From Desulfobulbaceae bacterium (lineage in GTDB: Bacteria; Desulfobacterota; Desulfobulbia; Desulfobulbales; UBA5123), in NCBI GenBank assembly GCA_029865195.1, contig JAOUHH010000001.1, forward strand, positions 1 to 42,050: a stretch of 42,050 nucleotides of DNA, in the 5' to 3' direction. Positions within the stretch are counted from its first letter, which is position 1. Each line of letters starts with the position of its first letter. Position numbers and translations under genes: made by a program. The notes under the pieces are model-generated. The model did not search any database. It was not told the origin of the DNA and worked only from the letters and a program-made list of their open reading frames with translations. This document shows, one piece after another, positions 1 through 42,044 of this stretch.

Positions 1-76
1 GATCTATACCCTCCGGCGGCCTGGCTTTAACCCTGTTGCCTGTTGCCAGGTCGCCGGAGTTTTTACCGGCAGCGCG

Positions 77-2380: not shown

Positions 2381-3466
2381 ATGGCCGTTCGCCCCCACCC
2401 CAAGCAACTCACCGATCCCCGATACTCCCGCACCTGGATCATCGATTATTACCCGCAAGGCCGCAAAGGCAAGCAGTTCAAGCGGCAATTCATCGGCACC
2501 GAAGGCGAGGCCCGCGCCCTCGAGGCGGAACTCCGTCGCGGCCACTCGCTCACGGTTGCGCCGCATCCCAAAATCATCGACCTCCTGCCGGAGTGGCTTG
2601 CCTACTACGCCAACAACCGCGCCGCCTCAACAGTGGCCGACGCCAAAACCTGCCTCAAGCAGCTGGTGCCGTTCTTCGGCATGCTGTTCGTCAATGCCAT
2701 CACGCCCGGGGTGGTTGAACAATACAAGGCCAAGCGCCGCCTGCCTGATCCGGCCACCGGCAGGGCGGCGGTGGGCAAACGCACCGTCAACAAGGAGTTG
2801 TCGTACCTGTCGAGCCTGATCACCTGGGCGACCGACAACAGCCACGCCGCGCCGCTGCCGTTCCGGATCAGGCCGTTCCCCCGGGTGCGATCGCCCAAGC
2901 CCCGCCCCCTTAACCGCGATCAGGTCACGGCGCTGATCAACGCCATCGAACCGGAATACCGCCTGCTGGTGATGATGATGACCGACGGCGGCCTCCGCCG
3001 CAACGAGGCGACCATGGCCACCGCCGAAAACGTGGACCTTGAACTCGGGGTGATATTCGTGAAAGGAAAGGGCGGCCACGAACGCCTGGTGCCGATCCTC
3101 ACCGACCGGCTGCGGGCGGCGCTCGCACACCGCATAAAAGAAACCGGCGGCCGGGGCTACCTCTCGGTAAACCCGGCCACCGGCAAGCCATACTACGGCA
3201 TCCGCAAAGCCCTGCTCCGCGCCGCCACGTCCACCGGCCTCGACAAAAACGTCTACCACCACCTGCTGCGCCACTCATTTGGGACGTCTATGGCCGCCGC
3301 AGGTGTTGACCTCGCCGCGATTCAGGATATAATGGGCCACCGTGACCCGAAAGTCACCAGAATCTACGCCCAACTCGCCGCCGAGGCGCTGAAGGCAGCC
3401 AGCCACAAGGCCGGTTCTTACATGGAGAATTCAACGCCCCCAAAAAACACCGCCACCACGGGATGA
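2381..3466 (+). CDS. int: Tyrosine-type phage integrase
   Basis: 'GGLRRNEA', 'HHLLRHSFGTSMAAAG' and 'IMGHRDPKVTRIY' supply the R...HxxR...H...Y catalytic pattern. It sits next to the tRNA-derived att sequence. Confidence 0.9.
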   Translation: MAVRPHPKQLTDPRYSRTWIIDYYPQGRKGKQFKRQFIGTEGEARALEAELRRGHSLTVAPHPKIIDLLPEWLAYYANNRAASTVADAKTCLKQLVPFFGMLFVNAITPGVVEQYKAKRRLPDPATGRAAVGKRTVNKELSYLSSLITWATDNSHAAPLPFRIRPFPRVRSPKPRPLNRDQVTALINAIEPEYRLLVMMMTDGGLRRNEATMATAENVDLELGVIFVKGKGGHERLVPILTDRLRAALAHRIKETGGRGYLSVNPATGKPYYGIRKALLRAATSTGLDKNVYHHLLRHSFGTSMAAAGVDLAAIQDIMGHRDPKVTRIYAQLAAEALKAASHKAGSYMENSTPPKNTATTG

Positions 3467-4144: not shown

Positions 4145-5532
4145 TTGAGTACCCTCACTGAAAATGATCGTGATATATAGTTGATGCTCGATGCCGCGTT
4201 GTGAAACACAAACAATTCCAGGTACTGACCAGCCGCCAACCGCACGACCTGCGCGATTGCTTTTGGCAGCGACAAGTTCTGCCCGTCGACCGGAGTCATA
4301 TCTTCAAATTGGTTCGCCCCGTTGAGATACACCATTTGGCGTCGATAGCCGCTATTATCACCTCCCCACGATCCGTTTATCGAGACGATCACATCACAGG
4401 CAGCGGGGGCGATAAACTTGTTGTTAGCGACATCGAACAACCCGTCAGTGTCATTGTATGTGTCGAATGTCACCTTTGTGGGAGTGCTTGCGGGGATTGA
4501 CTGTGTGGTCTTCGCCACGCTGGCAAACGAGAGCAGCGACGCCGGTCGGACGTTGCCGCCAGCGCCCTGTGTCTTGCTCGGCGGTGTCGTCCATGTCCCT
4601 GCGGTAGCCTCGGTGGCCTCGAAAAAACCGTACACCCGGAACGGGACATTACTGCGGGCTGCGGTGGAGTAGATAGTAGATTTGTTGTCGGCACCGCCTA
4701 CACCACCCTCCGCGACAGTAGAAATTAATTTCGATTCATCAAGGTCGATCCCCCCCCGCGCATTTATCCATGCGACCTCAACAGTACCGCCATTGTTGAT
4801 GAGCAACACCATATACCGCTCAGACACCCCATCCCGCCCTCCGCCGGTAGACCCACTCGAAATAACCGTCGAAATTGGTGCGGCAATATATATGCTATCA
4901 ACTGAGCCATCACCTAGCGTTTGATCACGGAAGTCGATAACCTGCGGCGGCACCGTGATTGTTAATGCGCCACCGGCCACAGTGGCGGTAAATGTTTTTA
5001 TCTCCTTCTCCCGTATCGACTCAAACACCAACTCAGTCGTCCCCAGCGTGATCGCTCCGGTGTTGGTGAGCCACCACACCGTCCCGGCGTTGTCGCCTTC
5101 TGATACCGGGATCTGCATGCGCTTGAGGAATTTGTTGCTGGCGTCCATGTCGGTGCGGCGTGTCCAGGCGCCGCCGGCAACCACGATCCACACGCCGTTT
5201 TCTTTGGCGTCGGTCTGCCCTGCCGCCAGCACTTCGTCTCCGGCTACGCAGGCAACGCCGGAGATGGTTTGCTCGCCGCTTAACGTGAGGTTGGTGGTGG
5301 CCACCACTCGCACCGCGTCGCGCACCAGCATGGAGCGCAGCAGCGCCTGCCAGACTTGGGTGTTGTCGTCGGCGCTCGGGGTGAGGCCCCGCTTGGTGAT
5401 CAGGTTGTCGAGTTCGCGTTGCGGATCCTCGATGGCCTGTGCCGGCACCTTGCTTCCTGCAATGCCCTGGCTCGGATTTTTGTCGATGTACGGATCGCCG
5501 GGGTCGCCCCCGATTGGCGGTGTGTATTCCAT
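4135..5532 (-). CDS. Tail fibre protein with a C1q/TNF-like C-terminal domain (start refined to MEYTPPIGG)
   Basis: ATG at 5530-5532, directly after the gp48-like stop. The N-terminus 'DPYIDKNPSQGIAGSKVPAQAIEDPQRELDNLI' is typical of fibre N-termini. The upstream part of ORF 4135..6072 overlaps the gp48-like gene and is not coding. Confidence 0.75.
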   Translation of the reverse strand: MEYTPPIGGDPGDPYIDKNPSQGIAGSKVPAQAIEDPQRELDNLITKRGLTPSADDNTQVWQALLRSMLVRDAVRVVATTNLTLSGEQTISGVACVAGDEVLAAGQTDAKENGVWIVVAGGAWTRRTDMDASNKFLKRMQIPVSEGDNAGTVWWLTNTGAITLGTTELVFESIREKEIKTFTATVAGGALTITVPPQVIDFRDQTLGDGSVDSIYIAAPISTVISSGSTGGGRDGVSERYMVLLINNGGTVEVAWINARGGIDLDESKLISTVAEGGVGGADNKSTIYSTAARSNVPFRVYGFFEATEATAGTWTTPPSKTQGAGGNVRPASLLSFASVAKTTQSIPASTPTKVTFDTYNDTDGLFDVANNKFIAPAACDVIVSINGSWGGDNSGYRRQMVYLNGANQFEDMTPVDGQNLSLPKAIAQVVRLAAGQYLELFVFHNAASSINYISRSFSVRVLKWL

Positions 5533-21273: not shown

Positions 21274-21498
21274 CTACTTCGTGACGACTGAAAGCCGCCC
21301 CTTGGCTCCTTGTCTTTTGAGATAATCGTGATAGCCGGGCTGGGAGAGCAGACGCCCGGAAACAAGAATCAACTCCAAAAGGTCGCAGGTTTCAAGAAAA
21401 CCTACAATCGACCTTCTCCAATGGCATGCCGCCTTTGAGTGGCGACCGCCTTGATCGGCTGGGGGTCTTACCGGCAAACGGACGATGGTGGCGCTCAT
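21274..21498 (-). CDS. Hypothetical small protein coupled to the antirepressor gene
   Basis: ATGA overlap with the antirepressor stop. Coding status is uncertain. Confidence 0.3.
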   Translation of the reverse strand: MSATIVRLPVRPPADQGGRHSKAACHWRRSIVGFLETCDLLELILVSGRLLSQPGYHDYLKRQGAKGRLSVVTK

Positions 21499-22376
21499 GC
21501 TTCACCCCCTTCCGCCATATCGGCAAACCGGACAAAGCGGTGATAGCGGTAACCGTGGGCGATCTTGCGGCAAGGCTCGCGCCGCCATCCCAAAAACGCC
21601 AGCGATTCTGACTCGCGGGAAAAGAGTGTTCCAAGGTGCTTTGGGTTTCTGAAGATGAGCGGCAACCTGGGCGCCCGCCCGGCGGCGATGAACGCCCCGA
21701 AGAACTGTGCCGTGGTGCCCTGCAGCCATTGGCCGTCAGGCCCGGTGCCGGTTTCAAGGCCGCAGCCGTTCGGTGGTGATGGCAGCAGCAGGGAAAGATA
21801 CTGCGACAGGGTGGCGGCCACGTCCGAGGCGGCAGGGTCCGGCGATTCGATTTCCTCCAGCAGGTCGGCAACCGGCATGCCGGTGAAGAAGTGCAGCGCC
21901 CGAAGGCTGGCCTTGCCCTTGAGGTACTTGTCCGCCTCGCGGCACAGAGCCGAGATGGCGTCCATGGAAAGGCCAGGGGAGGGCAAGGCCGCGCCTCCGG
22001 CATACTGCATCCGTTCGGCCCTGCCGGTGGTCCAATATTGCCACAGGGCGTCGTCGCATTCGTTTTGATAAGAGAGGATTTTTTCCCGGAGTTCTGGGCG
22101 GACTTTCTTGTGATTGATGGTGGCCAGGAACCCGGCAACCTTGCGGATGGGGATGCAGATGGTTTCTTGAATCCCTCCTGCGGAAGGCGTTGTGATAATC
22201 ACAACACCCCATCGATCATTGTTATTCTGTAATTTCACATACTGACTTGCCCAGTTTAGCCCCATGTTCTCAATGATCGGCCTGACCGGGGCGAAGGGTT
22301 CGCCGTTGTGGTCAACGGCAAAGATGGTGTCCCCGTGAAAAGGGACTGGTTCAAGTTGTTTGGCTTGCGCGGACAT
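21495..22376 (-). CDS. Antirepressor-like protein with a P22 Ant N-terminal-type domain (start refined to MSAQAKQ)
   Basis: 'PFHGDTIFAVDHNGEPFAPVRPIIENMGLNWASQYVKL' fits the P22_AR_N pattern. AGGAG lies 8 nt upstream of the ATG at 22374-22376. Confidence 0.7.
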   Translation of the reverse strand: MSAQAKQLEPVPFHGDTIFAVDHNGEPFAPVRPIIENMGLNWASQYVKLQNNNDRWGVVIITTPSAGGIQETICIPIRKVAGFLATINHKKVRPELREKILSYQNECDDALWQYWTTGRAERMQYAGGAALPSPGLSMDAISALCREADKYLKGKASLRALHFFTGMPVADLLEEIESPDPAASDVAATLSQYLSLLLPSPPNGCGLETGTGPDGQWLQGTTAQFFGAFIAAGRAPRLPLIFRNPKHLGTLFSRESESLAFLGWRREPCRKIAHGYRYHRFVRFADMAEGGEA

Positions 22377-22533
22377 GGCGGCTTCTCCTTTGTTGGGGTA
22401 AGAACTCCCCGCCCTCTGCGCTTCCAAACACAAAAAGGGCGGAACCGTACGGGTTGGAAGACCGGAACAAAGGAACCGGCGAGCCGAAGCTCCCCGCACG
22501 GCCCACCCAAAAGGTAAGCTATGCTGCGGACAC

Positions 22534-22559
22534 AAAAAAACCACCTGCACTGGGGGTGG
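22534..22559 (-). terminator. Intrinsic terminator/attenuator inside the antirepressor leader
   Basis: On the minus strand: CCACC-9 nt-GGTGG followed by seven T. It is nested inside an 8-bp outer stem (22526-22533 paired with 22565-22572). Confidence 0.45.
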
Positions 22560-22623
22560 CGGTGGTGTCCGCCTTTGTTTCCGGGCTTCCAAACCCGGTA
22601 GCGGATTTTGCCGCTACACCCCC

Positions 22624-22652
22624 AAGTTATCTCCTGGTTTTTCTATTGTCAA
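22624..22652 (-). promoter_or_regulatory. Sigma70-type promoter pointing toward the antirepressor gene
   Basis: On the minus strand: TTGACA (22652-22647), 17 nt, TAACTT (22629-22624). Confidence 0.5.
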
Positions 22653-22653
22653 T

Positions 22654-22698
22654 AATTAAATGTGCGGTTAGGGTACACACCTTACCGCACATTTAATT
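22654..22698. repeat. Perfect 15-bp inverted repeat AATTAAATGTGCGGT-N15-ACCGCACATTTAATT (candidate operator)
   Basis: Read directly. It abuts the -35 of the promoter above. Its core is shared with sites at 31493-31589 and 42031-42044. Confidence 0.6.
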
Positions 22699-22707
22699 AC
22701 ATAGGCC

Positions 22708-23091
22708 ATGTATAACTATACCAGATGTCCACATTGCGAAAGACTATACAAACTCGGCGATAAAAAACTCCAAATTATTGGGCAAGAGTTTGCTTGTCGC
22801 TGCGGCCAGCGTTTTGTTGCAACGGCGATAGAGGGAATACTACTTAAAGAGGACATCAAACGTGCATGCAAATTTAACCTCCTCTCGGTTGACTACATTA
22901 ACAAAGAATCAAAAAGGGATTCATTGCCGTTTGGGGTTCTTTTTGAAGAGTTTATGGATATGGTAAAGGATCACGCAATAACAAAATTGATTCGTGACCA
23001 CATAAACAAAAACAGATCAAGCTGGCGGAAACTATCAACAAAGGATGTTGAGGAAATTATAGACAACTTCAAAAAGAATAACGACCGATAG
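22708..23091 (+). CDS. Zinc-ribbon protein; AT-rich cargo gene on the opposite strand from its neighbours
   Basis: 'CPHCERLYKLGDKKLQIIGQEFACRCGQRF' is a CxxC...CxC zinc ribbon. It is the only plus-strand gene inside the late region. Confidence 0.6.
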   Translation: MYNYTRCPHCERLYKLGDKKLQIIGQEFACRCGQRFVATAIEGILLKEDIKRACKFNLLSVDYINKESKRDSLPFGVLFEEFMDMVKDHAITKLIRDHINKNRSSWRKLSTKDVEEIIDNFKKNNDR

Positions 23092-28043: not shown

Positions 28044-28066
28044 TGATTATCCCCCTTCACCTGCGA

Positions 28067-28111
28067 TAGCAGAGAAAGGGGACTCAGGCTGGCAGAGGGT
28101 GTCACTTTATG
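28067..28111 (-). promoter_or_regulatory. Conserved late-operon element, copy B, upstream of the packaging operon
   Basis: 38 of 45 positions match 21155-21199. It lies 23 nt upstream of the terS start codon. Confidence 0.45.
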
Positions 28112-28167
28112 GAGACATAACTGTCGCTACACCAGACACCGCTGTGCGGTGCTGGTGAGCTTTTTTG

Positions 28168-29899: not shown

Positions 29900-30109
29900 T
29901 TAGCCAGCCGCCGGCCGACTAACGTAATCTCTTGTAATATGGTTATTGTTTTTGTCGAAATACATTGATTCGGAAAAGTCTCCGGTATCACAATTGTCAC
30001 AAACTATTTCCACCCTTGTAGCGTCTTCTGGGTCTACCGGGGCCCTTGGTGTCTGTTTTTGGCGCTTGCATTTTGGACACCTCAATGTCAAGTATTCGCT
30101 CATTTTCAC
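29900..30109 (-). CDS. Zinc-ribbon small protein
   Basis: 'CPKCKR...CDNCDTGD'. ATGA coupling with the Mor-like gene. Confidence 0.5.
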   Translation of the reverse strand: MKMSEYLTLRCPKCKRQKQTPRAPVDPEDATRVEIVCDNCDTGDFSESMYFDKNNNHITRDYVSRPAAG

Positions 30110-30375
30110 CCCTCATTCACAATTCGTCTGATCTGTCTGGGGCAAAGGCCGAACCGTTCGGCCAGTTCGCCCACGTTGGCGCCGTTGAATAGGAGGCGGA
30201 TGCGGTGGTCGCGGGCCTCCCGGTTGAGCTCGTCCATGGTCGGCACCGTGATCCGGAAACCACCGAGCTCTTCGACCAACACCAGCATAATCGCGGCGCC
30301 AGCCTCCGCGCCAAACTCCTGCACCAGCCTGGCGGCGTATTGATCAATCAGTTCCCTGTTCTCGGCCCTCGACAC
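30106..30375 (-). CDS. Mor/C-family transcriptional activator-like protein
   Basis: The C-terminal HTH 'RIRLLFNGANVGELAERFGLCPRQIRRIV' fits the Mor family pattern. Confidence 0.65.
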   Translation of the reverse strand: MSRAENRELIDQYAARLVQEFGAEAGAAIMLVLVEELGGFRITVPTMDELNREARDHRIRLLFNGANVGELAERFGLCPRQIRRIVNEG

Positions 30376-31384
30376 TGGTGGCGCCCCCTTGAGTATAAAG
30401 TTGTTCCCATGTGCGCCAATAATCCCTCAAACTGCGGTACTCCTGATTGACCCGGCCGCGCCTCGGTAAATAACGGTCGGTGGTTGCTATGTTCTTGTGT
30501 CCGAGCCTGGCCGCGATTGCGGCGATGGTGAAGCCGCGCACAAAAAGCAGGTCGCTGCCGTGGGTGGCCCGGAACATGTGCGAGTGGATCCGTGGCTTGC
30601 GGACTCCGGCGGCGGTGGCTAGTTCTTTGACCAGGCGGTCGATGTCGTTGCCGGAAAGACGGCGGCCGACCAGTTGGTCGTTTTTGCGATAGCTGACAAA
30701 CAGCGGGTCGTCGATCTTCGCGCCCTGGGTGATCCGCACATTGAGCCAGCGGCGGATGAACACCGCCGGCGCGGCCCAGAGATCCACGGCCCGGCTGTGG
30801 CCCTGCTTGCCGATCTCTTCGTTGACCAGGATGTCGACATAGTGGCCATCGTCGACAAGGTCGGCCAGCCGCAGGCCGCACAACTCGCCAACCCGGAGAC
30901 CGGCAAAAGCCATTACGATCAGGATACAGGTGTCGCGCAGTCCCTTCTCGGTGGTCGGCGGGCTGGCCTCGAAAAACTTGATCACCTCGCCCCGGGTAAA
31001 ATACTGGATCATCTTCGGCTTGATGCGCGGCCTGGGGATCTGCGCTGTGATGTCCTCGGTGGCCAGTTTCTCATACACCAGGAACCGCCAGAACCCGGAC
31101 AACGCCCCGAGCTTGGTGTGGCGCGTGTATGTGCCGTTGCGGCGGTCGTAGTATAGATGCTTGAGCCATGCCTCGACGTCCTCGCGGGTGACCGACTCGA
31201 TGGCGGTGGTGCGGCCGTCCTGGTTGAGCCAGTCGAAGAACAGAGACACCCGGCGCTGATAATCGCCGACGCTCCGCTTGGTGAGGCCGCGCAGCACCAC
31301 AAGATGGTGGCCGTATTGTTCGAGCAGGTCGTCTAGCATCCCCCCCGCGCCCCCCCGGGAATAAGGTCTGAAAAACAGGCCCAA
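30344..31384 (-). CDS. Second tyrosine recombinase (XerC/D-like integrase); start may be at 31339
   Basis: 'AGLRVGELCGL', 'HMFRATHGS' and 'LGHKNIATTDRYL' are catalytic motifs. It also has an N-terminal SAM-like core-binding domain. Confidence 0.85.
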   Translation of the reverse strand: MGLFFRPYSRGGAGGMLDDLLEQYGHHLVVLRGLTKRSVGDYQRRVSLFFDWLNQDGRTTAIESVTREDVEAWLKHLYYDRRNGTYTRHTKLGALSGFWRFLVYEKLATEDITAQIPRPRIKPKMIQYFTRGEVIKFFEASPPTTEKGLRDTCILIVMAFAGLRVGELCGLRLADLVDDGHYVDILVNEEIGKQGHSRAVDLWAAPAVFIRRWLNVRITQGAKIDDPLFVSYRKNDQLVGRRLSGNDIDRLVKELATAAGVRKPRIHSHMFRATHGSDLLFVRGFTIAAIAARLGHKNIATTDRYLPRRGRVNQEYRSLRDYWRTWEQLYTQGGATSVEGREQGTD

Positions 31385-31492
31385 TTTAGAGGAGCCACTC
31401 GGTGGAGGTTGGAGGGGGTTGGGCTGAATCTTTTAGGGGGGGGTGGGGTACAGGTCAGCCCCAGACCCGACCATTCCCGACTCATTCCAATA

Positions 31493-31506
31493 CTTACCGC
31501 ACATTT
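31493..31506. promoter_or_regulatory. 14-mer CTTACCGCACATTT, identical to 22681-22694, next to an extended -10-like TGaTAACAT on the minus strand
   Basis: Read directly. It lies about 110-150 bp upstream of the recombinase start. Confidence 0.45.
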
Positions 31507-31558
31507 CATGTTATCAGCCTCCCGCTATCCCTTGGTATCCCGTATGATGCCCAACCAT

Positions 31559-31589
31559 TAACCGCACAATTTATTACTATGTGCGGTTA
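31559..31589. repeat. Inverted repeat TAACCGCACA-N11-TGTGCGGTTA (lox/dif-like or operator-like site)
   Basis: Perfect 10-bp arms. It can also be read as imperfect 12-bp arms with a 7-bp AT-rich spacer. Confidence 0.5.
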
Positions 31590-31846
31590 GAATGATTCCG
31601 TTATTCCGTCTATTATTTGCTACACGTTCCTAATAAGAAAAAAGAGAGAGACAACAGGGTGGTTTTCCCCTTTCCCCCCGGTTCTTTCAGCCGATTTCAT
31701 ACTATTACTAAGTAACCCCATATTAGGTATCTTCTCTCCCGCTAAACGAGGCCGGCGGCGGGTGCAGCGGCCCTCATGGGCGGGTAAAGGGAACAGCGGC
31801 CGCGCCCGGTCTTAGCTGTTTTGCGCCCCCCGAGGCGCTTTTTCAG

Positions 31847-32155
31847 TTGCACCCTAGCACCCTATTTTGTAAAGTGGCGTTTCTCCGACGTTTTTCTTGG
31901 GTGCATTTCAAAAAGCAGGCCCAAGAGTTGCACCCAACTTGCACCCACTTGCACCCAACTTGCACCCAACTTGCACCCAATCTAAATAACTAAAATTAAA
32001 TATAAAAATAAGGTTTGGGTGCAAGGGTGCAAGTGTTTCAGAAATGCGCCCGCCATCTCTGCAAAACACTAAGAAAAAAGGGGTGAGGTCTGGTTTTTTG
32101 ACAAATCCACCCTTTTGCCGTGTTTTTGCACCCACCAGCTTGCACCCACTTGCAC
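31847..32155. repeat. Iteron cluster with an AT-rich tract: candidate replication origin
   Basis: TTGCACCCA occurs five times in tandem at 31928, 31939, 31949, 31960 and 31971, spaced 10-11 bp. Further copies lie at 31847, 32126 and 32140, with a partial copy at 32150. Inverted copies lie at 31898, 32016 and 32024. AT-rich tract at 31981-32014. Confidence 0.7.
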
Positions 32156-32158
32156 TTT

Positions 32159-32731
32159 TCATGCTTCGTACACCAATAAAGCCGCGTCTACCAGCCAACG
32201 GGCAAAGGCTGGGACTGTTGCCGCCCGCTGGTGCTTGCTCATTAGTTGTTGCCGTCTCCGGTCGCCGCCCTGGTCATGCAACCGGTATGGGATAACAAGT
32301 TTTTCAGTCTTCACCCGTGAGAAACAGAGCCATGTTGCCTTTCTCATCGGGTATCCCCACCAGGCTTGCCATACAGAGATTGTCTTCATGTCCCCGACCG
32401 ATTGGCCTGGGCGTGGGAGGCCCGCCGCATCGAAAAGCCGGGAATGGGCCGGATGCTCCAACACGCCCCCACATTCCCGCAACTGGTCTGCACACCACAA
32501 GCCAAGCTCTTTCTCTCCCGGTAACGGTTTTGCTTGGTGCCCGCAATAGGCGCTCCATGCCCTGCACGGAGGATGGGCCACAATTGGCATCCCCCCTACA
32601 AATGATTTGGCATCCCGCCGCATGTCGTAGGCCTCGACCTCATGCATACTCTTATAGAAACTATTATTGGAGCAGCATAATACCGCCACGGTCTTGGTTG
32701 TGTCGCTGTCGTGGATGGCTATTCTCATCAT
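32159..32731 (-). CDS. 190-aa protein with C5-cytosine-methyltransferase-like motifs IV, VI, VIII and X, but no motif I or target-recognition domain
   Basis: 'HPPCRAWS' resembles PCQ motif IV. 'GGVLEHP' resembles ENV. 'WGYPMRKATWL' resembles QxRxR. 'QRAATVPAFARWL' resembles GNxVP. Resemblance judged by eye only. Confidence 0.45.
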   Translation of the reverse strand: MMRIAIHDSDTTKTVAVLCCSNNSFYKSMHEVEAYDMRRDAKSFVGGMPIVAHPPCRAWSAYCGHQAKPLPGEKELGLWCADQLRECGGVLEHPAHSRLFDAAGLPRPGQSVGDMKTISVWQAWWGYPMRKATWLCFSRVKTEKLVIPYRLHDQGGDRRRQQLMSKHQRAATVPAFARWLVDAALLVYEA

Positions 32732-33743
32732 TCACACAACCCGTAAATTGAAGAACACTTCGGCGGGGCTAGTGATTCGATCAGCCCGAATTGCCGCCCC
32801 CCCCGTACCGTGCGCGACCAATTAACCACATCGTCAATCATTGGCATTGGTAGATGGTGTTGCTTTTGGTGCTGTCCCGGCGTTTTGTCCGCAGCAAAAA
32901 AGGATGAGATACCTCGTTTGCTGCACAACCCAACTAACCGCTCCCACTCCCTGATCCGGTCTATCTCTCCCGGGAACCGCCAGGCAATGTTCCGGATCTC
33001 ATCTTTCCCGGCATGGATACACGGCATGCAACCGACCCGGCCACAACCCATCGAATACAATGGGTTTGGTTTGATGCCGTGCCGCCGGTGCATGGCAAAC
33101 ACTCGCTCTGCCGACCAACCAAGGATAGGGCGGACAATGATAAACTCCGGTGCCAGCCGCTCGATTTGCGGCATTTTTGCCCGGTCTGGTGATTCATCTG
33201 CCCGAACCCCTTGCCAAGACATCACTTTGTAGCCATCGGCCAAGAGAGGCACACCGCGACCTGATCGTCGATCAATTCCCGTTTCAACTCCTGTGAGCAG
33301 AAACGCGCCCGAGTGGAAGGGAACCGGCCCTTTAGAATGCACAGGTCAAGAAACGGGTTGCCGGTTGGGTACATATTCTCCAGCGCCCGGCGTTTTGCTT
33401 TGTTGGACCACCGGACCTTGCGGCCAGCACCAGTTTTCTTTTTGATCGGCTTCCCTTCGTCGTCCCGGCCTACAGTGACATACTTGTATTTCCTGCCGGT
33501 GCGCTGATCGTTGGCCACAAATGCGCGGTGCTTGAGTATCCGCTTGCTGAAATCGGCCTTAACCCGGACAATCGGCCCGGTCTTTTCTTCGAGGTAATCA
33601 AGATAATCATAGGTGGACTGGTGCTCGTTGCCGGTGTCCGCAAACACAGCGATATGAGGGATACCCTTCTCAATGGCAACCAGGCGCGTTGCGCCGGAGT
33701 CTTTGCCGCCGGAAACGGAAATAACGTGGATGGTTTCCATCAC
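32728..33743 (-). pseudogene. PAPS-reductase-family (PP-loop ATP pyrophosphatase) gene split into two frames
   Basis: ORF 33222..33743 carries the 'SVSGGKDS' PP-loop and 'CSQELK'. ORF 32728..33342 continues with 'SWQGVRADESPDR...GCMPC' in the adjacent reading frame. The junction is near 33255-33285. Confidence 0.7.
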
Positions 33744-36934: not shown

Positions 36935-37099
36935 TTATCTCACCGAACATTTCAATTTGCGGCGGGCCTTTCTGGCTTTAGCTTGCCGTTGTTGTTTGCT
37001 TGCCTTGGGGGCCGGGGCGGCGGTGTATGTTGCCTTATACGGCCAATGGCCGAAGAGGCGCTGAAGGAAAGATGGCTGTTGTTTGAGGTTGGTGCTCAT
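36935..37099 (-). CDS. Possible 54-aa highly basic peptide (below the ORF-track cut-off)
   Basis: Hand translation gives MSTNLKQQPSFLQRLFGHWPYK...KARRKLKCSVR. It fills an otherwise empty gap. Confidence 0.25.
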   Translation of the reverse strand: MSTNLKQQPSFLQRLFGHWPYKATYTAAPAPKASKQQRQAKARKARRKLKCSVR

Positions 37100-38404: not shown

Positions 38405-38611
38405 TTACATCTGATCCCTGATCCCAATCGCGCAGGGCATCACCACCGTGATCACCTTGCCGACTTCCGGCTCACCGCAGATCAGGTCGCGGTGTGCCTC
38501 AATGATTGGCGCTGTTGCCCCAGGCCCCAGCGCCACGGCCCATGTGTCCGGCCCGGTGATTGCCACACCGGAGATCACGAAATCCTGAGTGGCGATAACC
38601 TCGGCCATCAA
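38405..38611 (-). CDS. Hypothetical small protein
   Basis: ATGA coupling with the upstream gene. Confidence 0.4.
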   Translation of the reverse strand: MMAEVIATQDFVISGVAITGPDTWAVALGPGATAPIIEAHRDLICGEPEVGKVITVVMPCAIGIRDQM

Positions 38612-39201
38612 AACCCCTCCACGATGCGGCTGCGGTGTATAATGGGCCGCACCTCGCCGGTGCTGGCTCCATACTCGTCCTCGCCGTGCCCTTGCTGCAT
38701 GTAGCCTTTCACCTCAACGACCATGTCGCGCAGCATCCCTGCCACCAGTTGGCCGTCAAGCGCCCATACGTCAAAATCTTCCTCCTGGGCGTCGTGTCCG
38801 GCCTGGCCGGGGCGCGAAAGGTGCAGGGAGAGCCGCCACTTGTCGCCGATCTGGGCCAAGTCCGTCACCTTGCCGACCAGCACGAAAGCGGCGCGAGGTG
38901 GCTGATCGGGCGCCGGTTCCCATCCATAAAAGGTGAAGTTGCTCATAATCTCTTCGCGGGCCTCATACTGGCCGAAGTACCCACGCATCCGCACGACTTG
39001 GTCGGGGTGGTCGCCGTGGTGGTCGATCAGGCCGTCGATCTTCTCCGCGCCGAATATCCGGCCATAGGCCCGCACCGATCCATGCTTGCCGGAGCAGTCG
39101 AGCGTCACCATCAGATACGGGGCGCCGTTTTGGGTACTCTTCCGCTCCAGTTCCTTGGTCCGGCCCCAGACGTTGCCTGCGTTAAAATGCTTTATTGCCA
39201 C
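38608..39201 (-). CDS. Hypothetical protein, possibly an OB-fold ssDNA-binding protein
   Basis: The N-terminus 'NAGNVWGRTKELERKSTQNGAPYLMVTL' resembles the first strands of SSB. Weak. Confidence 0.4.
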   Translation of the reverse strand: MAIKHFNAGNVWGRTKELERKSTQNGAPYLMVTLDCSGKHGSVRAYGRIFGAEKIDGLIDHHGDHPDQVVRMRGYFGQYEAREEIMSNFTFYGWEPAPDQPPRAAFVLVGKVTDLAQIGDKWRLSLHLSRPGQAGHDAQEEDFDVWALDGQLVAGMLRDMVVEVKGYMQQGHGEDEYGASTGEVRPIIHRSRIVEGF

Positions 39202-39745: not shown

Positions 39746-40381
39746 TCAAATCCCTCCCACCCGCTCCATCTGTTCCTTGGTCGGCTTGGTGTAGATCATG
39801 GTTGATGAAAACGCCTTGTGACGGAGTTGCTCGGCGCAAAATTGCAGTTTTTGCTGCTGTTCTTCCGGCAGCAGGTTGATCAGGTCGGCGATGATCCGGT
39901 GCGCCTTCGTGTGCCGCAGGGCATGCGGGGTGTAGATGTTGATCCCCGCCTCGCGGCACCAGTTCCCCATCAGGTCGTTAAAGGTCCGCGCCCCGATCCG
40001 TCCGCCCTTCTTGCTCACAAAGAGCGGGGCGTCGGCGGCCAGGCTTTCGCCCCATGTCCGCTTGCGGCGCAGGTGCGCGGCCAGAATCTCGCGCAGGTCT
40101 TTGTTCATGTAAACGGCGCCGGTCGCTCCCTTCTTGGCGATCCGCTCGTCGACCACCAGCTGGTTCTTGATGGTCACGCCGTTGTCGGTTACGTCGCCCA
40201 CGTTCAGGGCGATGGCCTCGCCGCGCCGCAGGGCGGTGTGGCGGCACATCTTGAGCAGGGCGAAGTCGCGCTCCGCCTGCTTGCCCTTGCGGCCTTTGAT
40301 GGTCGCAAAGAGCGCTTTTTCTTCCGCCTCGGTCAGGTAGTTTTCCCCGGCCCTGGTCTGGATAGGGTTGTTCATGGTCAT
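39746..40381 (-). CDS. Third, small (211 aa) tyrosine recombinase without an N-terminal core-binding domain
   Basis: 'TALRRGEAIAL', 'HALRHTKAH' and 'LRHKAFSSTMIYT'. GGGAGG precedes the ATG at 40379-40381. Confidence 0.8.
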   Translation of the reverse strand: MTMNNPIQTRAGENYLTEAEEKALFATIKGRKGKQAERDFALLKMCRHTALRRGEAIALNVGDVTDNGVTIKNQLVVDERIAKKGATGAVYMNKDLREILAAHLRRKRTWGESLAADAPLFVSKKGGRIGARTFNDLMGNWCREAGINIYTPHALRHTKAHRIIADLINLLPEEQQQKLQFCAEQLRHKAFSSTMIYTKPTKEQMERVGGI

Positions 40382-40683
40382 GGATTGCCTCCCGTTGCTG
40401 TTGGTTGTGCCTCGAAGGTCTCGCGGGGCAGGCGGCGAGGCATACCGCTTTTCGGGGCGCACTCCCTATCCCCGCGATTCCAGATGATGAACCCGACCAC
40501 CGACGTGGCCAGATAAAAGCAAAAAAGAGCCACCGCCGGCCAGTTGCCGACCCGGTAAAACGCGCCGATCCAGCCGATGTTGGCGAATATCCACACACCC
40601 TGCCCACTGCGGCGGCGGGCCATATTGAGCACCGCGCCGGTCATGCTGAGTCCGGTGAGCATCCAGGTCGGCTCAAGAGGCAT
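40378..40683 (-). CDS. Small integral membrane protein (about 3 TM helices)
   Basis: Hydrophobic segments with conserved Trp and Gly residues. ATGA coupling to the recombinase gene. Confidence 0.45.
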   Translation of the reverse strand: MPLEPTWMLTGLSMTGAVLNMARRRSGQGVWIFANIGWIGAFYRVGNWPAVALFCFYLATSVVGFIIWNRGDRECAPKSGMPRRLPRETFEAQPTATGGNP

Positions 40684-42030: not shown

Positions 42031-42044
42031 CTCACCGCACATTT
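42031..42044. promoter_or_regulatory. Third copy of the 14-mer (CTCACCGCACATTT, one mismatch), upstream of the CII-like gene
   Basis: Read directly. It lies about 90-100 bp upstream of the start at 41942. Confidence 0.4.

Follow-up and report, generated by a model that had tools for sequence, protein, structure and literature searches.

In the transposons Tn4430 and Tn5401, the recombinase TnpI binds a single motif present both as an inverted core pair and as accessory copies upstream of tnpI (PMC2847244); in Tn5401, extra copies occur elsewhere, and TnpI modulates promoters that lie inside its site (PMC7157771). The dif sites of Xer recombinases span about 28 bp, a 6-bp center being flanked by two 11-bp arms; XerS/difSL and XerH/difH form gene-plus-site modules and, in Xer systems with a single recombinase, the site indeed adjoins the gene (PMC2731167). 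Further parallels come from two phage regulators: the C1 repressor of P1, which has 22 dispersed asymmetric 17-bp operators and controls the late activator Lpa among other targets (PMC8546580), and the CII protein of coliphage 186, whose half-sites are 20 bp apart and centered at -38 and -58 (PMC6593788). Here we compare with these systems a short recurrent motif from a 42,050-nucleotide stretch of a Desulfobulbaceae genome (positions 1 to 42,050 of contig JAOUHH010000001.1, assembly GCA_029865195.1; hereafter the window).

Judged from its sequence, the window is a temperate phage of 42 kb that is complete and circularly contiguous. The motif is most likely an element of about 14 to 17 bp, 5'-wwAwTGTGCGGTwAG-3', recognized by one phage-encoded protein with one monomer per copy. 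Copies lie upstream of the gene for a Xer-like tyrosine recombinase (31339 to 30344, minus strand), at the promoter of an operon for a C4 antisense RNA and an anti-repressor, and within the early operon. We tentatively favor the recombinase itself as the protein that would bind the motif, holding this reading with slightly less than even confidence.

The arrangement upstream of the recombinase gene resembles the TnpI/IRS systems of Tn4430 and Tn5401 in that the motif is present as an inverted core together with an accessory copy of the same orientation, directly upstream of the recombinase gene; moreover, additional copies occur away from it, as they do in Tn5401. It differs from them in several respects. 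Those systems belong to Tn3-family transposons, whereas the window is a phage with primase, origin, Mor, terminase, and portal and without a transposase. The IRS contains two adjacent DR copies and a core in which a 4-bp spacer separates two 14-bp repeats; the window has a single accessory copy, at 65 bp, and an 11-6-11 core. The recombinase is also co-transcribed here with a Mor-family late activator and has no detectable close sequence relation to TnpI. With XerS/difSL, XerH/difH, and the archaeal XerA/dif, the locus shares the full catalytic set, a site of about 28 bp with two 11-bp arms, and linkage of the site to the gene. Unlike these modules, it is found on a phage beside a replication origin rather than at a chromosome terminus, and it has an extra half-site at a fixed distance as well as half-sites at promoters; nothing points to a dependence on FtsK.

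A recurrent motif confined to noncoding DNA

The first-pass annotation of the window had described a 14-bp repeat with two identical copies and a third with one mismatch, and this description holds. The 14-mer CTTACCGCACATTT occurs exactly at 22681-22694 and 31493-31506 (both plus strand) and with one mismatch at 42031-42044 (plus) and also at 22658-22671 (minus). When up to two mismatches are allowed, the window contains five matches against 0.18 expected, a count reached in 0 of 100 shuffles; the core ACCGCACA occurs seven times against 2.1 expected. Together, CTTACCGCACATTT and its close variants make up six strong copies (S1 to S6) in three noncoding places (22654-22698, 31493-31589, and 42031-42044). 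About 92% of the window is coding, and all six strong copies fall in the remaining 8%, which is not what a generic repeat, as common in coding DNA as outside it, would give.

A position weight matrix (PWM) built from six good copies adds one match at 36939-36952, followed by a wide gap in score, and it finds no scoring site in the cI/cro switch. This possible weak copy, S8 (minus strand; CTCACCGAACATTT on the plus and AAATGTTCGGTGAG on the minus strand), has PWM scores of 22.1 and 15.4 against a background maximum of about 13, which ranks it among the true sites. It lies at a gene junction, overlapping both the end of a small early gene and the Shine-Dalgarno sequence of the gene that follows. 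A further copy of the core at 28143-28150 was rejected as a chance match, being part of a terminator-like hairpin with unrelated flanks.

The copies are found singly and as inverted pairs of both orders, with differing spacings: the A/T-rich ends of the half-sites point outward in the 22.6-kb palindrome and inward in the 31.5-kb palindrome. Hence, we postulate that the protein would bind monomer by monomer rather than as a fixed dimer. A role of the motif as the -35 or -10 element of a common promoter was rejected, because the spacing to a -10 element, analyzed by hand, is inconsistent over the six copies.

The conserved module upstream of the recombinase gene

Viral, genome, and metagenome collections and a protein database were searched for relatives of the recombinase. 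Near-identical DNA was found neither in GenBank phages nor in complete Escherichia coli genomes, tblastn of the recombinase against GenBank phages returned only matches below 30% identity, so that it has no cultured relative there, and the scan of genome contigs yielded only two relatives, both metagenome-assembled genomes. The region upstream of the recombinase gene was read in L001/L007, L002/L003, L004, L005, L006, L008, L013, L014, L015, L018, and L019. All 12 distinct related phages with a readable upstream region (15 loci) have the module, at recombinase identities from 71% down to 43%, and its order is conserved: ACGGAAT repeats, a palindrome, a single motif copy, a leader that contains both a C-tract and a G-tract, the recombinase gene and, overlapping it, the Mor gene, and finally terminase.

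The palindrome (S5 and S4; 31560-31587, minus strand) is 28 bp long and dif-like, with an 11-bp arm, a 6-bp center, and a second 11-bp arm (ACCGCACATAG / TAATAA / ATTGTGCGGTT); the family consensus is ACCGCACATAA / TTATAA / AAAGTGCGGTT. An inverted repeat with 10-bp arms had been noted earlier at 31559-31589, with its cores about 20 bp apart; the arms stand, and the cores are 19 bp apart, center to center. Position and 11-6-11 geometry are alike in 12 relatives, and the dif-like site lies about 220 to 250 bp upstream of the recombinase start codon in every readable relative. On these grounds, we predict that 31560-31587 is the core site of the adjacent recombinase. The single copy S3 (31493-31506, minus strand) has the orientation of the gene-proximal arm, at a distance of exactly 65 bp; the same spacing is found in 10 distinct relatives, with 64 bp in L015. 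It is predicted to be an accessory or regulatory half-site. Directly upstream of the palindrome are the two ACGGAAT direct repeats (31595-31609, minus strand), which are conserved in the alignments and number three in L010.

Sequences resembling -10 hexamers overlap these sites: TATAAT/TATAAA-like in the center of the core and TAGnTT-like at the single copy. A consensus scanner found no full sigma-70 promoter at the 31.5-kb sites. S3 overlaps TAAGTA, a -10-like sequence, and also the AUG that begins an upstream open reading frame of 58 codons (ORF; 31333-31509, minus strand; MKCAVS...PPPP...GGARGGC*), which starts at S3 and whose stop codon overlaps the recombinase ATG (ATGCTAG). This ORF is open in the window, L001, L002, L005, L006 (by hand), and L014, in which it is called as a gene. 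Further, a C-tract (31436-31448) is predicted by RNAalifold over 10 loci to pair with a G-tract (31340-31356) across the recombinase ribosome-binding site. This arrangement suggests that translation of the recombinase may be coupled to that of the leader ORF.

A scan of viral sequences for the 31.5-kb core returned, besides the two known relatives, a set of Pasteurellaceae-like phages that proved unrelated, the palindrome there being a terminator after an ant-like gene. In these (L022-L024 of IMG/VR), AACCGCACA-N11-TGTGCGGTT is followed by a T-run and forms a plain terminator. It resembles the uptake signal sequence AAGTGCGGT, copies of which lie nearby, and its likeness to the window motif is coincidental.

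Variation of the motif between related phages

The motif takes different forms in different phages: GTGCGG in the window, GTGACG in L004, GTGCCG in L005, GTGTGG in L008, CGCGGT in L018, and GTGCGA in L019. Within one phage, all three copies of the module carry the same variant. In the 12 related phages, copies differ at 1.94 positions per 10 nucleotides within a phage against 3.67 between phages (permutation p<1e-4), and the arm:arm and arm:single pairings both exceed nearly all column shuffles and all slid controls. The copies thus change in concert and would therefore be read by something specific to each phage, which points to a phage-specific binding protein. A host factor such as LexA or CRP was rejected as the binder, since the motif varies among related phages. 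The proposal in the first-pass annotation of a regulon under one DNA-binding protein is thereby upheld as regards a single sequence-specific factor, given the enrichment, the noncoding placement, and the likeness of copies within a phage; the proteins it had named for this role (cI, Cro, or CII) find no support, as discussed below.

The recombinase and the Mor-family activator

The recombinase (331 amino acids; 30344-31339, minus strand) matches the Pfam families Phage_integrase and Phage_int_SAM_1. Its residues R148, K177, H253, R256, H280, and Y289 are invariant in 5 homologues, and its best solved relative is XerD (1A0P, E=8e-16), aligned over residues 5-290. With the catalytic residues and both XerD-like domains intact, the protein would need a site on which to act. 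It misses all the NCBIfam equivalog cut-offs, scoring 126 bits for XerD (cut-off 330), 118 for XerC (335), 115 for XerA (220), and 45 for XerS (267); the score for XerD is a further difference from the described Xer modules. An integron-type attI/IntI system was rejected, given 50 bits with the integron-integrase model against a cut-off of 265 and no cassette array.

The gene that follows (30106-30375, minus strand) encodes a Mor-family late transcription activator of 89 amino acids (Pfam Mor, 45.7 bits against a cut-off of 24.9; PHROG late transcriptional activator). It overlaps the end of the recombinase gene, and hence the two would form one operon. Every relative has a small homologous gene after that of the recombinase, with Pfam Mor detected in 6 of 6 loci with called genes. 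An alternative assignment of the 89-residue protein to Ogr/186-B was discarded in favor of the Mor family.

Upstream of terS, a late-promoter element is present in the window (28050-28110, minus strand), with a dyad at 28078-28108, AAAGTGACAC-N13-GAGTCCC, followed by a TGCTAT-like -10 element. The element also precedes terS in L004, L005, L006, L007, L014, and L015; the dyad is perfect in L004 (GTGACAC-N13-GTGTCAC) and hardly changes among phages that differ in their recombinase-side motif. The Mor-family activator probably binds this element. Since the late promoter thus has a different and nearly invariant dyad, Mor is unlikely to be the reader of the motif.

Palindrome at the anti-repressor operon

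The pair S1/S2 lies within a palindrome at 22654-22698, with arms AATTAAATGTGCGGT and ACCGCACATTTAATT. Its 15-bp perfect arms and 15-bp spacer are as first annotated, with the spacer partly palindromic itself, and the element lies 1 bp from a TTGACA. The GTTAG ends of the two half-sites face each other, 9 bp apart at the level of the 14-mer, with the cores 30 bp apart. The element can fold into a hairpin of -26 to -27 kcal/mol (z of -5 to -6). Because the half-sites are inverted in order and separated by a 15-bp spacer, we take this pair to be regulatory rather than a site of crossover.

The adjoining promoter of the immI-like operon (22624-22652, minus strand) has a -35 TTGACA (22652 to 22647), a 17-bp spacer, and a weak -10 TAACTT (22629 to 22624), which matches the consensus at 3 of 6 positions and drew no call from the consensus scanner. 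The unit that had first been annotated simply as the antirepressor begins with a P1-type C4 antisense RNA and its a1/b1 targets: the leader (22435-22630, minus strand) comprises c4-a1b1 (22578-22630), an isrK-like element (22534-22617), and the C4 antisense RNA (22435-22514), with Rfam matches at gathering level to RF03163 (52.5 bits), RF01394 (59 bits), and RF01695 (51.5 bits). The anti-repressor Ant (293 amino acids; 21495-22376, minus strand) matches Pfam P22_AR_N (E=1e-39) and PHROG anti-repressor Ant (E=5e-53). In the window, ant comes directly after the C4 leader, with no icd-like ORF between them; in relatives, the C4 element is located elsewhere: L002 has it after Mor, L006 in its early operon.

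Since one arm ends 1 bp from the -35 element, we predict that S1/S2 is the operator of the C4/ant promoter. On the other side, a divergent ORF of 127 amino acids (22708-23091, plus strand), with only weak zinc-ribbon matches and no homologue in the corresponding loci of relatives, starts 14 bp after S2; S1/S2 may also repress this gene. L002 and L006 have TTGACA at the same position upstream of the C4 RNA but lack an S1/S2-type palindrome at their C4 promoters, and thus the palindrome would have been added in this phage. Ahead of low-GC accessory genes, L006 carries additional copies of its own motif; hence, recruitment of sites to other promoters would not be unique to the window phage.

Though the 22.6-kb and 31.5-kb palindromes both fold stably, the scanner called a terminator at neither, and no U-run is present outside the stem. 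A viral scan for the 22.6-kb palindrome with its flanks gave no match. Without flanks it gave 66, which were set aside, at least 10 of the 12 with two PWM-scoring sites being unrelated low-GC phages; no homology to the window recombinase or to its other regulatory proteins was found in these low-GC matches. Nine IMG/VR loci of about 36% GC (L035, L040, L062, L064, L067, L071, L077, L082, and L095) share the arrangement TATATGTGCGGTTATC-N5-ATTCACCGCACAATGC with the same 8-bp core; they form an unrelated group, in which the recombinase and the other regulatory proteins of the window have no homologues.

The copy in the early operon

S6 (42031-42044; AAATGTGCGGTGAG on the minus strand) lies in the early operon between the Cro/Apl-like gene (310 to 77, minus strand) and the CII-like gene (41942 to 41430, minus strand; Pfam Phage_CP76). 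The earlier view that each copy lies upstream of a minus-strand transcription unit therefore needs amending for S6, which is inside the early operon and not at its start. L016 retains S6 beside cII even though its cI (Phage_CI_repr) and cro (HTH_35) differ from those of the window. The cI/cro switch itself (310-377) has no copy of the motif and instead has a palindrome of its own, GTAACCCGCGTTAC.

Just past the Cro/Apl-like stop codon, about 35 bp before S6, is a hairpin with a 13-bp stem (13-57, minus strand; CCGGCGACCTGGC ... GCCAGGCCGCCGG), which lacks a U-tract; L016 has kept it. In that relative (region 4540-4610), a hairpin insertion of 38 bp falls exactly at the window junction 42050/1, and the different cI/cro cassette of L016 is joined inside the cro gene, amounting to module exchange at the immunity region.

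Candidate readers of the motif

The sites of recombinases normally adjoin the recombinase gene. Taking the above findings together, we propose that the target upstream of the recombinase gene is ancestral and would be common to the whole phage family. Its two inverted copies (31560-31587) would form the 11-6-11 dif-like core at which strands could exchange, and the third copy, 65 bp downstream, might hold an extra, non-catalytic subunit. Recombination at the core could resolve replicon multimers next to the origin. Since the copies overlap promoter-like elements, their occupancy might throttle the recombinase-Mor (middle) operon and hence the timing of late genes. This phage would then have recruited the half-site twice, back to back, against the -35 element of the C4-RNA/anti-repressor promoter, with one further recruitment, or perhaps two, inside the early operon; at 22.6 kb the half-sites might act as operators or roadblocks. 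That the sites could be recombinase targets, offered in the first annotation as a second choice, is thus the best fit, with the proviso that crossover geometry is confined to the 31.5-kb palindrome and that the other copies would be non-catalytic. It is possible, if doubtful, that the recombinase, sharing an operon with Mor, doubles as a regulator, timing late genes through the sites in its own leader and also controlling the C4/ant and early operons.

A number of observations weigh against the recombinase as the reader. Adjacency is the only direct link between it and the motif, and Mor and several conserved early proteins, among them the 238-residue short recombinase (39746-40462) and a 197-residue protein (38608-39201), are equally universal in the family. 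The C1 repressor of P1 follows the same logic, with dispersed asymmetric sites over the ant and late-activator operons (PMC8546580). Within the palindrome, the inner 3 to 4 bp of the arms are asymmetric (CATAA versus CTTTT), and the 11-6-11 reading was our choice over one with 8-bp arms and a 13-bp spacer. The palindrome is intact in the integrated prophages L006 and L014, so that it is not the attP used for integration, and no recombination product was seen. Outside the recombinase leader, the sites show no conservation among relatives, and their function is read from position. Finally, the co-variation of the copies is equally predicted by a hairpin in the leader RNA: differences between the arms on the sense strand amount to 5 G.U pairs versus 2 mismatches in the central 7 pairs, and over the full 10-pair arms, to 7 G.U pairs versus 15 mismatches.

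Of the other readings, the one to which we give the most weight, while still thinking it unlikely, is that the copies are operators of a phage repressor yet to be named, which would bind as a monomer on asymmetric sites like the C1 protein of P1. Lysogens would then keep the ant operon, the Mor operon, and part of the early operon shut, and the recombinase would merely be the first gene of its operon. P1 and the window have in common the C4 RNA/Ant circuit, with a C4 antisense RNA and a1/b1 targets upstream of the anti-repressor gene, and a dispersed, asymmetric, operator-like motif that occurs singly or inverted at the ant operon and at a late-activator gene (PMC8546580). The placement is that of operators: the arms of the palindrome flank one -10-like hexamer, the single copy overlaps another, and S1 adjoins the -35 element of the ant promoter. 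Co-variation of operator and repressor between heteroimmune phages is, moreover, classical, and the lysogeny operon encodes three proteins without a family match (967-1296, 1365-1862, and 1859-2380) that are possible DNA binders. However, searches of Pfam, PHROGs, and NCBIfam, which a diverged analogue may have escaped, gave no match to C1 or to any other regulator beyond cI, Cro/Apl-like, CII, and Mor, and the motif is unrelated to the P1 operator consensus ATTGCTCTAATAAATTT and absent from the cI/cro switch. An operator needs neither a fixed 65-bp spacing nor 11-6-11 geometry, and this reading leaves an active recombinase without a visible site. The window differs from P1 also in having six or seven sites against 22, a late activator of the Mor family rather than Lpa, and no icd-like ORF in the immI-like region. 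A quite unlikely alternative places the action of the three leader copies in the mRNA, where the left arm would pair with either the right arm or the single copy where the upstream ORF starts and thereby set translation of that ORF and, via the C-tract:G-tract helix, also that of the recombinase. On this view, the 22.6-kb palindrome would be a hairpin in its own right, which might for example insulate the late operon from the ant operon or act as a terminator between them. RNAalifold indeed gives an arm hairpin together with the C:G helix over the recombinase ribosome-binding site in 10 loci, with 85% of left:right and 83% of left:single positions paired and covariation scores that were reached by only 2/500 and 1/500 shuffles. 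Sense-strand differences between arms are mostly G.U in the central 7 pairs, the 22.6-kb element folds at the energy given above, and a similar palindrome is a plain terminator in the unrelated Pasteurellaceae-like phages. Against this, any DNA palindrome would give the same pair statistics, and the excess of G.U (5 versus 1 C.A) is not significant (about 0.1, one-sided sign test). The 22.6-kb hairpin has no U-tract beyond its stem and sits upstream of the ant promoter, and pairing in RNA leaves unexplained why the 22.6-kb arms and the lone 42-kb copy match the leader copy at 13 to 14 of 14 bases, including flanks outside the stems.

Assignment of the sites to the 186-type CII-like activator (41942 to 41430), the cI-like repressor, or the Cro/Apl-like protein appears improbable. 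The phage does encode a Phage_CP76 (CII) protein, which, as in coliphage 186, follows the Cro/Apl-like gene, with one motif copy, pointing toward cI, in the Apl-CII interval, where 186 has pE. The cores of the 31.5-kb palindrome, 19 bp apart, approach the two helical turns between the 186 half-sites centered at -38 and -58 (PMC6593788), and in L014 and L015 a TAATAT hexamer stands where a -10 element would be expected (manual count). The 186-type spacing fits this palindrome only, unlike the 22.6-kb pair (30 bp apart and reversed) and the single copies S3 and S6. Further, the CII-like protein has one detectable homologue among 5.8 billion proteins, on a 5.8-kb contig, and none was detected in L006 and L007 despite their identical motif; CII thus does not co-occur with the conserved sites. 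We consider CII unlikely because it is nearly absent from the database while the module is kept in phages at 43 to 71% recombinase identity, and the reading would also have CII switching on the late activator Mor. As to cI and Cro, they are unlikely because their switch is without a copy and because S6 persists in L016 although cI and cro differ there. XerC and XerD act at one shared dif site, and the short recombinase (39746-40462, 238 amino acids) could in principle bind the motif, either by itself or in partnership with the Xer-like enzyme. The early operons of L004, L005, L006, L013, L014, and L015 all retain this short recombinase, and the arms of the core differ in their inner bases, as those of two-recombinase dif sites do (PMC2731167). 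Yet it lacks an N-terminal DNA-binding domain and matches only the catalytic half of Xer models, its gene is not adjacent to the sites, and the outer 8 to 10 bp of both arms are the same motif, suggesting a single protein; we rate it as the least probable of the candidates.

Other features of the phage

The two ends of the window join, since the relative L016 reads across 42050 to 1, with the 38-bp insertion. Going along the window, the Cro/Apl-like gene is followed by the cI-like helix-turn-helix repressor (377-970), the integrase (2381-3466), the structural genes (4-21 kb), terminase and portal (23.5-28 kb), and a low-GC block (28-30 kb). Beyond the recombinase and its sites lies an array (31847-32147) of eleven copies of TTGCACCC/GGGTGCAA, tandem and inverted, around an A/T-rich stretch (31980-32010), which is an iteron-type replication origin, presumably for the P4-like primase (36745 to 33740, minus strand). 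A supposedly conserved ORF of 54 amino acids at 31821-31985 was rejected as a gene, because it consists of origin iterons misread by the ORF finder and tblastn. Between the origin and the primase gene, a PAPS-reductase-like gene (32728-33743, minus strand) is split into two overlapping ORFs of 173 and 204 amino acids, where L014 has a single gene of 266 amino acids; this may reflect a frameshift, a pseudogene, or an assembly error. The short tyrosine recombinase (40462 to 39746, minus strand), the third of its kind in the window, is preceded by an int-alpA RNA motif (RF02996, 43.8 bits; region 39746-40476, minus strand).

Implications for the phage family

What would be new here is that, in a phage family not studied before, a recombinase site comes with accessory copies and serves regulation on the side. 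Should the motif indeed be bound by the recombinase, this would provide a phage case of a site-specific recombinase acting as a regulator, a role documented mainly for transposon resolvases, and one wired into both the firing of late genes, through Mor, and the production of the anti-repressor. Its dual role, itself doubtful, would result in a recombinase-centered lysis-lysogeny circuit without counterpart among studied phages, an outcome on which we place no greater confidence. The prediction is compact, involving one protein and four short DNA targets, for which nature supplies the variants GTGCGG, GTGACG, GTGCCG, GTGTGG, and CGCGGT. The analysis also defines a conserved module of primase, iteron origin, dif-like site, Xer-like recombinase, Mor, and terminase, which belongs to an unstudied family of Desulfobacterota temperate phages, those of sulfate-reducing and cable-bacteria relatives.

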